A stretch of DNA of 21,812 nucleotides, taken from UHGV virus genome UHGV-1651579, one strand, 5' to 3'. Source of the DNA: a virus. Below are positions 13,115 to 17,137 of this stretch, in pieces. Under the pieces are notes generated by a model. The model was given only the letters and a program-made list of their open reading frames with translations. It had not been told where the DNA came from and did no database searches. Positions within the stretch are counted from its first letter, which is position 1. The number at the start of each line of letters is the position of its first letter. The translations under genes and the position numbers were made by a program.

Positions 13115-14074
13115 ATGTTTGGTAATCTTTTCAAAACGGAAGAAACTAAGGCCCGGGAGGGCTTGGAGTCTCATTATCAGAAAGTCATGAGCTTCGTTGC
13201 TGAAAATGATCTACATGAAGCATGGGAAAAAACACGCAATATCATTTTTCGAAATATGGAAGTTAGAAGCTACATCACGCAAAACGGCGCGTTCGATCGT
13301 AACGATTTTTACTATAAGTCAGCCAAAGAGAAGCTTATTCAAAGCGCCTTCACTTCATACCTACTCATAAAAGTTTTACCTCAGTTCTATGAAATGCATC
13401 TCACCACTTTGAAAAGAAAAGAAAAAACACTCACAACACAGGATGAATACGGGGTCTGGAACTTTGACAAGTGGTTTGATGAAGTAGACTACTTTTATGA
13501 CAAGGTAGTAAAAGAGAAAGTTTACGATTGGATCGAAGAGAACACAGGCCGGCTCAACAACCTTTGGTTGGCAGAGTCGGAGGACAAGAATGCCTGGGGG
13601 CGGCCAGTTTACTTTAAATTCCAGTTGCCTGAACAATTTGATCGCTGCGCAATAAATCACATTATGACGGTGGTAGACAATACACCAGAACCTGAATTAC
13701 CTGAGTACACTTCGCTACTGACCGGGCACGAATATGAGCATTTTGTCGCTGGGGAGTTTATGAAGTATGGATCCGACACCCAAGTAACTAAGGGCAGCGG
13801 CGATCACGGTCTGGATATCCTTGTAACCTATAGAGAAGTTCGAATGGCTGTTCAGTGCAAACACTACCAGTCTAAAGTAGGCAACAAAGCTATTCAGGAA
13901 GCATTTTCCGCGAAACAGTTCTACGATTGCTCCCTCGCAATAGTAGTCAGCAACAGCGAGTTTACCCCTCACGCCAGACAAGCAGCCAAAAAACTGGACG
14001 TTTATCTGTATCACCATGAAGATATACACTTAATAATAGACGCCATTAATAATTGGCTGGATGCGCCGGAGTGA
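13115..14074 (+). CDS. two-domain protein: unknown N-terminal domain (about residues 1-195) + C-terminal Mrr-type PD-(D/E)xK restriction-endonuclease domain (319 aa)
   Basis: C-terminal block GHEYEHFVAGEF...KGSGDHGLDIL...AVQCKHY...IVVSNSEFTPHA matches Mrr catalytic-domain pattern (GxGDxGxD and VQCK); plus strand and AT-rich, unlike neighbours. Confidence 0.7.
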   Translation: MFGNLFKTEETKAREGLESHYQKVMSFVAENDLHEAWEKTRNIIFRNMEVRSYITQNGAFDRNDFYYKSAKEKLIQSAFTSYLLIKVLPQFYEMHLTTLKRKEKTLTTQDEYGVWNFDKWFDEVDYFYDKVVKEKVYDWIEENTGRLNNLWLAESEDKNAWGRPVYFKFQLPEQFDRCAINHIMTVVDNTPEPELPEYTSLLTGHEYEHFVAGEFMKYGSDTQVTKGSGDHGLDILVTYREVRMAVQCKHYQSKVGNKAIQEAFSAKQFYDCSLAIVVSNSEFTPHARQAAKKLDVYLYHHEDIHLIIDAINNWLDAPE

Positions 14075-14837: not shown

Positions 14838-14865
14838 GCGGCTGGCCAAGCCAGCCGCCTTTTGG
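14838..14865. terminator. GC-rich hairpin GCGGCTGG-ccaag-CCAGCCGC with T-tracts on both sides
   Basis: 8-bp stem; on plus strand followed by CTTTTGG; sits between P2 box 14942-14955 and ATG 14808. Confidence 0.4.
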
Positions 14866-14941: not shown

Positions 14942-14955
14942 GGTAAATACTTACT
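14942..14955 (-). promoter_or_regulatory. P2 box copy 3 (GGTAAATACTTACT)
   Basis: overlaps stop codon of RNase HI gene; TATAAT-like hexamer immediately downstream on minus strand. Confidence 0.5.
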
Positions 14956-15559
14956 TATACTTTTGTGACAAAAACCCAATGTCATGCTTGTGAGGCATAT
15001 CAGCTGCGGAATAGGCGGCGATCTTCGCCAGACGGTCACACATTTCGTTCTCGCGATGACCTGCATGGCCTTTAACCCACTTCCAGCGGACATTATGACG
15101 ACTGGCGGCCACGTCGAGACGTTTCCAGAGATCCACGTTTTTGACTGGCTTCTTCTCAGACGTGATCCATCCGTTACGCTTCCAGCCTTTCATCCAGAGC
15201 GTCATGCCGTTTTTAAGATACTGGCTGTCGGAATGCAGGATCACGTTGCAGGGGTACTTCAGACGCTCCAGCGCAATCAGGGCGCCCATCATCTCCATCC
15301 GATTGTTGGTCGTGCTGTGGAAGCCCTCAGAAAGCTCGCGCTCTTCGCCTCGATACTGGAGAACGATACCGTAACCGCCCGGCCCGCCCGGATTTTTGAG
15401 GCAGGAGCCATCACTGAATACTTTTACGGTTTTGAGCTGGGGATTGAACTCGACTACGGGTGTGTTGAAATTGGTACAGGAATGCTGGTGGGTTTGGCAT
15501 CTGGCTTTAGACTTCGTGCGGCAGCCAGTGCGTTGCCGGACTGGGTTCTTGGTCGTCAT
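14951..15559 (-). CDS. rnhA: RNase HI with about 45-aa basic Cys/His-containing N-terminal extension (202 aa)
   Basis: body aligns with E. coli RnhA ([43 protein letters not shown]); all four catalytic acidic residues present; ATG 15559 with GGAG 5 nt upstream. Confidence 0.85.
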
Positions 15560-15600
15560 TTTGGCTCCAGAATCGCGCGCCGCGACGATTTTTTTTCCCT

Positions 15601-15626
15601 CGCGCGTGTGCGCACGCGTGCGTGTA
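15601..15626. other. 26-nt perfect alternating pyrimidine-purine tract (CGCGCGTGTGCGCACGCGTGCGTGTA)
   Basis: about 45 nt upstream of rnhA ATG; potential Z-DNA-forming. Confidence 0.5.
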
Positions 15627-16136
15627 AATATTAAAAATTTTTTAGAAAAGAAAAATTACTTCCCAGAACAGGTTTTAATAAAACCTGAACTGAACGAACG
15701 AAGTGAGTGAAGTTCACCTCGAACGAAGTGAGAGGTTGTCTTTTCAAGTAATACTCTCCCAGTGAGGTGAGTACAAAATTTCCTCACCAACCTGGTCGTT
15801 TCATAACCTGAAAAGTTATGACCTAAGTCTACTGCCAGCTTAGGCTTGGGAAGTTATGGATGACAGCACCCCAGAACCGAGATCTTCCCACACTTTATGA
15901 AGGGGAGTACTGGATTCAACCTCTCGAAACACTCCAGACTCGACAATCATAAAGTGACCCTTCTCTCTGCCCACTTTGGTTCCCCCTTCCCCAACCCCTA
16001 AACGGTGCCGGTTCTACGCTGGTAGTGAGCTTTTTTAAACCTGACGCCAGTGACGCTATCCCCCACCCATCAGGTCGAGCTGCCGAAAGTATCCGGAAGC
16101 GGATAGATTGTATCACTGGTTAGTGGCGTTTTGAAT

Positions 16137-16585: not shown

Positions 16586-16972
16586 TTACGCTGCCTTTTT
16601 ACGTGGTCTCTTCTTCCTGACAACATTGGCAGGATCATAACCACCCAGCTTTTTCATCACCGCCAGCGGTATCTTGCTGATGGTGTGCCCAGCTTCCTGA
16701 CAGTAGCCACGGAAGATAAGCAACATGCTGCCACCAGGGTTGATGTTCACCTCCACCAGCCCAAGTTCAACATCCGGCTCAACGAACGCCACGCGGCCGC
16801 CAGACAAGATGACGGTTTCGTTGGCGCATTCAGCCGCACGCTCGTACCACTGCGTATCGAGGGATTGTGGTATCAGCATGACCGTCGTCACTCCACGCGC
16901 CTGCTCGCGAATGGCTGCGTCTATCCAGGGGGTGATTTTGGAGTAGGGCGGGTTGTCGCAAAAGCATCCCAA
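16586..16972 (-). pseudogene. 5'-truncated phage-type Dam-like N6-adenine methyltransferase fragment (C-terminal about 128 aa)
   Basis: begins at a TTG directly before CDNPPYS; upstream extension of the frame is not methyltransferase-like; AT-rich junction 16980-17160. Confidence 0.5.
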
Positions 16973-17137
16973 CGATGATAATGGGGATCTGATATTACCC
17001 CGTATGGCAATGTCATGTGTCTTTTCCTTTGTGGTTATTTTGATACAAATTCTAAGCGTGCATAAGAGGCGTACAACCCATACAAAACGGCATACAAAAG
17101 AATATAAAGGTACATGATAATGATAAAAAAATAAGTA

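Follow-up and report, generated by a model that had tools for sequence, protein, structure and literature searches.

The window analyzed here, a stretch of 21,812 nucleotides from the virus genome UHGV-1651579, encodes a ribonuclease HI (RNase HI) of the Escherichia coli RnhA type whose active site is intact as far as sequence and fold show. The enzyme is a member of a textbook family and is already named rnhA in public annotation; it differs from other members by a lineage-specific, predicted disordered polybasic tail at its N-terminus and by a conserved linker that joins this tail to the catalytic domain. The gene is a core gene of SSU5-family temperate phage-plasmids, to which the sequenced replicon belongs. 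Directly upstream of the gene lies a conserved structured RNA, which is more remarkable than the RNase HI and merits follow-up; its link to the enzyme is unproven. Coordinates of all features are collected in Table 1.

A prediction made earlier from the letters of the window (the original prediction) described the product as a catalytically intact RNase HI and proposed its alignment to RnhA. Profile searches support this description. Residues 44-182 matched PF00075 (RNase_H) in Pfam with 154.7 bits (E=2.2e-45; the gathering score is 25.8), and residues 42-185 matched the NCBIfam ribonuclease HI equivalog NF001236 with 218.2 bits, against a cut-off of 160. The phage family of the protein is PHROG 531, annotated as RNase H (E=4e-75). 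The best matches among the solved structures in the PDB were E. coli RNase HI (1RNH, 2RN2) and its many mutants, with residues 42-184 aligned to residues 2-143 (E about 1e-61); the catalytic domain is 58% identical to the E. coli enzyme over 143 residues. D50, E89, D111, D175, and H165, the counterparts of D10, E48, D70, D134, and H124 in E. coli RnhA, were invariant across the phage-plasmid relatives and chromosomal RnhA in two alignments, and their codons were checked directly. The match to the PDB chains independently confirmed the correspondence of these residues to those of E. coli RnhA. The alignment to RnhA thus bore the prediction out: the four acidic residues and the catalytic histidine are all present. 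The basic protrusion, or handle, which serves in substrate binding, is present as well and aligns without gaps to that of E. coli (WKKRGWKTADKKPVKN).

We obtained an AlphaFold2 model of the protein from a shallow input alignment of 33 sequences. The predicted local distance difference test (pLDDT) score exceeds 90 across most of the catalytic domain. In a Foldseek comparison with E. coli RNase HI structures, with Shewanella RNase HI entries included, the model gave template modeling (TM) scores, normalized to the target, of 0.84-0.94 and root mean square deviations of 1.5-2.5 A over about 154 columns. The ratio of nonsynonymous to synonymous substitution rates (dN/dS) was estimated with the Nei-Gojobori method, in a custom script, from ten lineage representatives; among the most distant pairs, dS reaches saturation. 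The value for residues 45-185 was 0.03, which indicates strong purifying selection. Relative to E. coli RNase HI, the protein adds the 41-residue disordered polybasic tail and linker and about 12 C-terminal residues, and it is far more basic: the net charge of the domain is +8 to +11 versus +2 for E. coli RnhA, and the isoelectric points are 9.84 and 8.43, respectively.

The original prediction also placed an N-terminal extension ahead of the domain and named an internal non-ATG start codon as the finding that would make this extension untranslated. We looked for such a codon and found none before codon 65: from codon 2 up to codon 64, the frame lacks ATG, GTG, TTG, CTG, and ATH. Since the catalytic D50 precedes codon 65, the next start-like codon, no shorter active product is possible. 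In the upstream direction, the frame is closed at codon -33, and no ATG, GTG, or TTG occurs in frame from that stop to the ATG. An alternative start, internal or upstream, was rejected because there is no usable in-frame codon on either side of the ATG. A purine-rich GGAG or GAAG is retained at the position of the ribosome-binding site in other lineages. In a comparison of 75 loci (57 distinct coding sequences), the M-T/K-T-K/S start and a 12-residue segment before strand beta-1 were retained in all lineages, and all differences in the length of the extension are whole codons. Because the ATG is the sole usable start codon and is served by a GGAG, because the start is kept in all lineages, because the insertions and deletions stay in frame, and because the linker has a dN/dS of 0.07, these sequences indicate that the 41-residue N-terminal extension must be translated. 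The extension predicted earlier is thus real.

Public records call the gene at 196/197, 202, 214/215, and 254 amino acids. We regard the longer calls (SSU5_090 with 254 amino acids, and those of the Prokaryotic Genome Annotation Pipeline, PGAP, with 214/215) as mis-calls, because they cross a spacer whose length and reading frame vary between lineages. This spacer is the least conserved stretch of the neighborhood (pairwise identity 0.32-0.76). The lengths of its tracts differ even among close relatives, which explains why the public start-codon calls are inconsistent. The analysis settles this inconsistent start-site annotation of the phage-plasmid rnhA.

In the AlphaFold2 model, residues 1-30 have pLDDT values below 50, and residues 31-40 have a mean of about 71. 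A search of 1.84 billion representative proteins matched residues 1 to about 35 only in the SSU5-like cluster; all other matches began at about residue 35-47. No Pfam family matched residues 1-43 at E<=1, and PF00075 was the sole family on the protein. The tail was considered as a hybrid-binding domain (dsRHbd, PF01693), and this was rejected on the missing Pfam match at E<=1 and on the low pLDDT of residues 1-30. Judged from the model and the composition, the 41-residue appendage would be an intrinsically disordered polycationic tail (about +7), neither a folded nor a metal-binding domain.

Selection on the extension is uneven along its length. The dN/dS is 0.27 for tail residues 1-8, 0.62 for the tail core (residues 9-32), and 0.07 for the linker (residues 33-44). 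The tail core thus changes its sequence almost freely, yet in every lineage the extension is 36-41 residues long and carries a net charge of +6 to +8. Relatives at 62-66% identity (P0092, P0099, P0101) keep the F-[ND]-P-x-L-K-T core of the linker and have shorter tails rich in lysine and arginine. N-terminal overhangs as such are not rare, since about 28 of about 90 single-domain RNase HI representatives have one of at least 35 residues. In two viral contigs, L050 and L059 (1446-2040), the first ~20 codons of the tail are swapped for unrelated sequence in which no start codon is evident (…AVDCTGPSQFEYQTHQQSRTNFKTPVVEF…); this pattern hints that the 5' end of the gene was rearranged.

The layout of the protein resembles that of the RNases H1 with a hybrid-binding domain, which are found in eukaryotes, Bacillus halodurans, and Shewanella SIB1 (PMC9719913). 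These enzymes also consist of an N-terminal substrate-binding appendage, a linker, and a catalytic domain, and by analogy the tail might have a similar effect on substrate affinity and processivity. Their hybrid-binding domain is a folded unit of ~40-50 residues (PF01693), whereas the tail in the window is predicted to be disordered and has no match to this family at E<=1. On this comparison, the tail is an analogue and not a homologue of the RNase H1 hybrid-binding domain, and the same applies to the N-terminal domain with which RNase HIII binds its substrate (PMC9719913).

The original prediction had drawn attention to cysteines and histidines in the extension and had suggested a zinc-binding assay. 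In the window, the sequence does read C13-x7-C21-x6-C28, H24 and H26 lie between C21 and C28, and the ~41 residues are basic, as was stated. The pattern is not conserved. Of the 57 distinct coding sequences, 36 lack cysteine in the extension; one cysteine occurs in 17, two occur in 3, and three occur in the window alone. C13 is present in 21 of the 57, and the segment with C21 is deleted in 43. C28 (TGT) is unique to the window and differs by a single CGT-to-TGT change; 45 of the 56 other relatives have the arginine codon CGT or CGC at this position. A comparison of these sequences indicates that C-x7-C-x6-C is an accident of the window sequence. As a conserved feature, a zinc finger is refuted by the cysteine counts, and the predicted disorder of residues 1-30 and the lack of a match to any Pfam zinc-finger family also speak against a metal-binding module. 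The three cysteines and two histidines of the window notwithstanding, the chance that the extension is a small zinc-binding module is practically nil.

The gene was predicted to be plasmid-borne, and a second RNase H was considered unusual in that context. The region shares 95% identity with Salmonella phage SSU5 and 99% with E. coli plasmids of ~110 kb that are typed as non-mobilizable. As judged from these sequences, the replicon is an SSU5-family temperate phage-plasmid and not an ordinary or conjugative plasmid. The RNase HI gene occurs in 685 plasmid records from Klebsiella, Escherichia, Enterobacter, Salmonella, Citrobacter, and Cronobacter and in 12 phage genomes, including Cyrano and PhiR41_1; many of these records annotate it as 'rnhA: ribonuclease HI' or 'RNase H'. 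In this family, a second RNase H is thus the norm and not an oddity. The gene order is shared by SSU5, Cyrano, PhiR41_1, and Klebsiella ST13-OXA48phi12.3. In the relatives, the co-oriented block around the gene encodes a Dam methylase, a DnaQ-like exonuclease, an AAA ATPase, a dihydrofolate reductase (DHFR), ThyA, a MazG-like protein, and an SbcCD-like pair. A literature search for SSU5 or pHCM2 together with RNase H returned incidental mentions only.

Expression figures are available for phage Cyrano as gene-level counts; the RNase H protein of this relative is 83% identical to that of the window. E. coli LF82 carries Cyrano at 5.5 copies per cell (PMC9928086). In RNA sequencing of the lysogen, the RNase H gene (CYRAN_82) scored 8.4, compared to 9.5 and 8.3 for its protein-coding neighbors, that is, at the prophage background (PMC9928086, S1 Table). 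Because transcription in Cyrano lysogens is at background, the gene appears to act in the lytic cycle and not in plasmid maintenance. Establishment of the plasmid after conjugation had been proposed as a role for the enzyme; 675 of the 685 carrier plasmids are typed as non-mobilizable, and this typing together with the background expression removes the idea.

In the window itself, the surroundings of the gene are altered. In the region 16586-17100, the dam methylase gene is truncated at its 5' end, with only nucleotides 226-594 left, and a junction lies at 16954/16955. From position 16955 follows a region with repA, a hypothetical gene, and an SbcD-like metallophosphoesterase, which opens with the first ~22 codons of the SbcD-like gene. 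The two joined regions stand ~13 kb apart in the relatives; thus, the block with the DnaQ exonuclease, AAA ATPase, DHFR, ThyA, MazG-like, and SbcC genes is deleted in the window. No plasmid record among the matches spans the junction, and it may mark a defective derivative or an assembly artifact. The proximity of repA was considered as a sign of a role in plasmid replication and rejected, because the distance of 3.2 kb exists only through the ~13-kb deletion.

We consider it probable that the gene encodes a working RnhA-type RNase HI of the phage-plasmid replication block, which would remove primers and R-loops in the lytic cycle and would use its disordered tail as an electrostatic tether. 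By homology, the product should be a Mg-dependent endonuclease of RNA:DNA hybrids. Gene context and the Cyrano expression data suggest that the gene is silent in the plasmid state and is a lytic-cycle gene, and the enzyme would then remove RNA primers and R-loops during the lytic replication of the ~105-kb genome. An RNase HI of its own would free the element from reliance on the single host RnhA. From the anatomy of the protein, the tail would most likely serve as a non-specific electrostatic tether that raises affinity for, and residence time on, nucleic acid, and the conserved 12-residue linker would fix this tail to the catalytic domain. A functional parallel is phage T4, whose RNase H removes RNA primers during phage DNA replication. 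The presumed task is similar; however, T4 RNase H (rnh) is a 5'-3' exonuclease of the FEN-1 family with an unrelated fold and mechanism, whereas the window protein is an endonuclease with the RNase H fold.

Several points weigh against this assignment. Enzyme activity and binding of nucleic acid by the tail are read from sequence and model. The dN/dS of the tail core approaches neutrality, and the tail could be tolerated and not selected. The host already has RnhA, and the need for a second enzyme is an assumption. The ~13-kb deletion in the replication and nucleotide-metabolism block means that the gene may no longer work in its normal context in the window, and the expression evidence comes from gene-level counts in a relative with 83% identity.

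The tail could instead be a docking or targeting element that recruits the enzyme to the phage replisome, to the single-stranded DNA-binding protein (SSB), or to the sliding clamp, or that takes it into the capsid with the DNA. The conservation of the first eight residues (MTTK[TN]P[AV]R) and of the linker on either side of a variable middle is the pattern of short linear motifs. E. coli RNase HI binds the C-terminus of SSB, and some capsid-internal proteins have arginine-rich arms, which would parallel packaging into the virion. No known motif was recognized, however, and Pfam is blank for residues 1-43 at E<=1; it is mainly charge and length that are conserved across lineages, which fits electrostatics better than a specific interface. 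We regard docking as unlikely. The extension might also be evolutionary baggage: the start codon would have moved upstream into a former leader, and the resulting disordered tail would be tolerated without a function of its own. The near-neutral dN/dS and frequent insertions and deletions in residues 9-32, the confinement of the tail to one phage-plasmid clade, and the frequency of long overhangs among single-domain RNases HI, which are probably often incidental, would fit such an origin. But loss of the tail or a return to a start close to the domain is seen in no lineage, the net charge is held despite the turnover of the sequence, the constraint on the linker equals that on the catalytic domain, and the relatives at 62-65% identity retain a shorter lysine-rich tail. 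These observations make baggage rather unlikely.

The original prediction had further raised the possibility that the enzyme counters host immunity that depends on RNA:DNA hybrids, such as the products of retrons and other defense reverse transcriptases or RNA-guided Argonaute. What speaks for this is general plausibility: host RNase H1 is reported to be required for the maturation of retron multicopy single-stranded DNA (msDNA) and for the function of RnlB (PMC8989520, PMC5308261). In addition, a variable slot 1 kb downstream of the gene holds a defense-like Mrr nuclease in the window. The gene lies among replication genes, though, and not among accessory genes, and, as a core gene with strict conservation and strong purifying selection, it contrasts with anti-defense genes, which evolve fast. 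The protein had no match in PADLOC, and a literature search for phage RNase HI as an anti-defense factor found nothing specific. We consider a counter-defense role very unlikely and favor the tethered lytic-cycle RNase HI described above.

Upstream of the RNase HI gene, about 390-440 nucleotides of a 590-nucleotide stretch that appears intergenic hardly vary among SSU5, Cyrano, PhiR41_1, and a Klebsiella phage, whereas the RNase H coding DNA of this Klebsiella phage is only 78-80% identical. Among 66 distinct sequences, the mean pairwise identity is 0.9-1.0 over ~16065-15681, compared to 0.8-0.9 for the RNase H domain, and no other part of this neighborhood is as well conserved. Lineages retain their own characteristic substitutions within the element; the conservation thus reflects selection and not a recent sweep. 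A consensus structure was calculated with RNAalifold from 24 diverse copies. It has 130 pairs in 17 helices, and 98.9% of the cells are paired under it. Compensatory double changes were found in 18 pairs. Shuffled alignments gave 8.5 +/- 1.4 covarying pairs, and none of 500 reached 18; when the partners were slid by 1-3 columns, 1-4 pairs covaried. Many invariant G-U pairs can form only on the minus strand, the one that also encodes the gene. The minus-strand fold has an energy of -150.7 kcal/mol (z = -2.7). Compensatory changes also occur in the last helix (15692-15664), after which comes a U-rich stretch. The RNA is G-rich: its overall GC skew is +0.15, and the value rises to +0.49 near the GGGGTTGGGGAAGGGGG cluster.

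A sigma-70-like promoter with an extended -10 element is predicted at the head of the RNA (16135-16107). In alignments inspected by eye, its TTnAnA, 17-nucleotide spacing, and TAnnAT are kept in SSU5, Cyrano, Klebsiella, and P0092-type relatives, with the flanks diverging. The one open reading frame of notable size within the element (15840..15974, 44 amino acids), called CYRAN_81 in Cyrano, was rejected as a gene: insertions and deletions of one and two nucleotides occur in it, and the conservation extends over all codon positions. The Cyrano annotation places this 'hypothetical protein' inside the RNA element, and the over-long RNase H call of the SSU5 records overlaps the element. The Cyrano study described CYRAN_81 as a 'moron' whose expression in lysogens exceeds the prophage background 12-fold (PMC9928086). 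Its score was 117, compared to 9.5 for the gene upstream and 8.4 for the RNase H gene downstream (PMC9928086, S1 Table). Going by the predicted ends and these gene-level counts in Cyrano, the RNA may be a discrete transcript expressed in lysogeny that mostly ends before the RNase HI gene.

The element is present in 687 plasmid records, in 12 phages, and in Kluyvera. It was found in 232 of 5426 complete E. coli genomes (~4%). A chromosomal homologue in E. coli was considered and rejected, since 232 of the 234 matching places are on plasmids; the two chromosomal places were left out of the check. No match to any of the 4227 Rfam families was found at gathering scores in the whole window, and the E-value mode gave only chance-level matches (E 2.4 or worse). 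ARAGORN found no tRNA or tmRNA in the element. About 700 public records carry the element, and none of those listed annotates it as an RNA. Publications containing its signature sequences were not found in the searchable literature. In expression during lysogeny and in conserved secondary structure, the RNA resembles other non-coding RNAs of temperate elements, such as P1 c4, P4 CI RNA, GOLLD, and ROOL; it is much larger than c4 or CI RNA.

Searches with nhmmer and with a covariance model of the 5' domain did not find the RNA in P0099- and P0101-type contigs or at seven other viral RNase HI loci. In a Buttiauxella gaviniae contig (L092, 4840-6188), a decayed remnant is present: the 3' 320 nucleotides of the RNA are fused in frame to the end of an open reading frame for a 387-amino-acid SbcD-like metallophosphoesterase, and a gene for a LysR-type regulator stands in the place of the RNase HI gene.

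Does the RNase HI act together with the adjacent RNA? The RNA could form an R-loop or pre-primer that the enzyme processes to start or switch replication, or the RNA could control the enzyme. Because the RNA is G-rich and always adjacent to the RNase HI gene in this clade, a functional link of this kind is possible. The two are neighbors in all ~690 carriers, including a lineage in which the RNase H is only 66% identical, and the polybasic tail could bind RNA. The size of ~440 nucleotides and the structure of many helices recall RNA II. RNase H processes RNA II at ColE1-type origins, where a structured RNA of several hundred nucleotides with a G-rich segment is likewise tied to RNase H function on a plasmid-like replicon. 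There are differences, however: ColE1 uses the RNase H of the host, whereas the element in the window encodes its own; a consensus scan found no antisense promoter, as for RNA I, inside the element; and a RepA/Rep3 initiator is credited with the plasmid replication of these elements. We take the likeness to ColE1, which is one of analogy, as a lead only. Lysogens, moreover, have the RNA at a high level and the RNase H at background, P0099- and P0101-type relatives have an RNase HI without the RNA, and the Buttiauxella remnant has part of the RNA without an RNase H. The discordant expression, the relatives without the RNA, and the remnant without the enzyme disfavor an obligatory link, and we judge joint action of the two to be quite improbable.

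A broader scheme would unite these elements in one module. The RNA, abundant in lysogeny, would serve as an R-loop, pre-primer, or decoy; the tailed RNase HI would bind and process it once the lytic program induces the enzyme, and hybrid processing would thereby be coupled to the switch from plasmid to lytic replication. The RNA would at the same time represent a new family of large structured phage-plasmid RNAs. We offer this scheme as a speculation with a small chance of being correct.

Some relatives have unusual RNase HI arrangements. In distant SSU5-like lineages (L088, 166-702; L089, 218-733; L090 and L091, 5477-6004), a second gene of 171-178 amino acids overlaps the start of the RNase HI gene. 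Its product is RNase H-like and has lost the catalytic residues (SGC for DGS, and no E in the TNNRME motif). The RNase HI of these lineages is 62-65% identical to that of the window, the tails have only 23-26 residues, and the conserved RNA is absent. Many metagenomic proteins of ~300-360 amino acids (P0093-P0097 and P0121-P0160) carry two tandem RNase HI domains per chain, and a few carry three; these tandem-domain proteins outscore single-domain chromosomal RnhA against the query. A copy of 202 amino acids on a 5.2-Mb E. coli contig (P0086) is 74% identical, and scattered substitutions hit its catalytic positions (VVGAGNRL for VFSDGSCL), so that either an integrated copy is degenerating or the assembly is of poor quality.

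Table 1. Features of the RNase HI locus, with positions in the 21,812-nucleotide window.
Feature	Position	Strand	Basis or remark
RNase HI coding sequence	14951..15559	minus	list of open reading frames; 202 codons and TAA stop (14951-14953)
N-terminal polybasic tail, residues 1-32	15464..15559	minus	lineage-specific; predicted disordered (pLDDT)
Conserved linker, residues 33-44, tail to strand beta-1	15428..15463	minus	dN/dS 0.07
RNase H catalytic domain, residues 45-185	15005..15427	minus	codon check, invariant alignment columns, dN/dS 0.03
D50 codon	15410-15412	minus	
E89 codon	15293-15295	minus	
D111 codon	15227-15229	minus	
H165 codon	15065-15067	minus	
D175 codon	15035-15037	minus	
Shine-Dalgarno sequence GGAG	15565..15568	minus	sequence read; 5 nt upstream of the ATG at 15559
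Variable spacer between RNA element and RNase HI start	15569..15654	minus	sequence read; includes an AT-rich stretch
GC hairpin	15573-15585	minus	in spacer
A8 run	15589-15596	minus	in spacer
Alternating purine-pyrimidine tract, 25 nt, with palindrome CGCACGCGTGCG	15601-15625	minus	potentially Z-DNA-forming
Structured RNA, ~440 nt, directly upstream of RNase HI gene	15655..16100	minus	conservation, covariation; ends predicted
Sigma-70-like promoter of the RNA (TTCAAA, 17 nt, TG-n-TACAAT)	16107..16135	minus	consensus scan
Terminator-like GC-rich hairpin, 9 bp, ~90 nt past the RNase HI stop	14838..14858	minus	consensus scan

The palindrome CGCACGCGTGCG in the spacer was considered as a repeated operator and rejected, as the window holds no further copies beyond chance. 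Downstream of the RNase HI gene, positions 13115-14074 of the plus strand encode a 319-amino-acid protein with a C-terminal Mrr-type restriction-endonuclease domain (PF04471), which resembles the nuclease end of ZorD and PDC-S02 in PADLOC. This gene sits, on the opposite strand, where the relatives have Rha/Ant antirepressor or TciA/TciB-like genes, and the slot looks like a variable accessory or defense position.

The RNase HI alone matters little. Where other enzymes use a folded hybrid-binding domain, this phage lineage has given a minimal RNase HI a predicted disordered polycationic tail, and the protein thus lends itself to testing whether an intrinsically disordered region can tether an enzyme to its substrate. 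The larger pay-off lies in the upstream RNA, which would be a new large structured RNA family of phage-plasmids independently of any coupling to the enzyme. If the two did form one module, the processing of RNA:DNA hybrids would be tied to the passage from plasmid-mode into lytic-mode replication. SSU5-type phage-plasmids occur widely among clinical Escherichia, Klebsiella, Enterobacter, and Salmonella, and the role of the RNA could reveal how these elements are maintained and switched, be it through immunity, copy number, control of induction, host manipulation, or R-loop biology together with the RNase HI.

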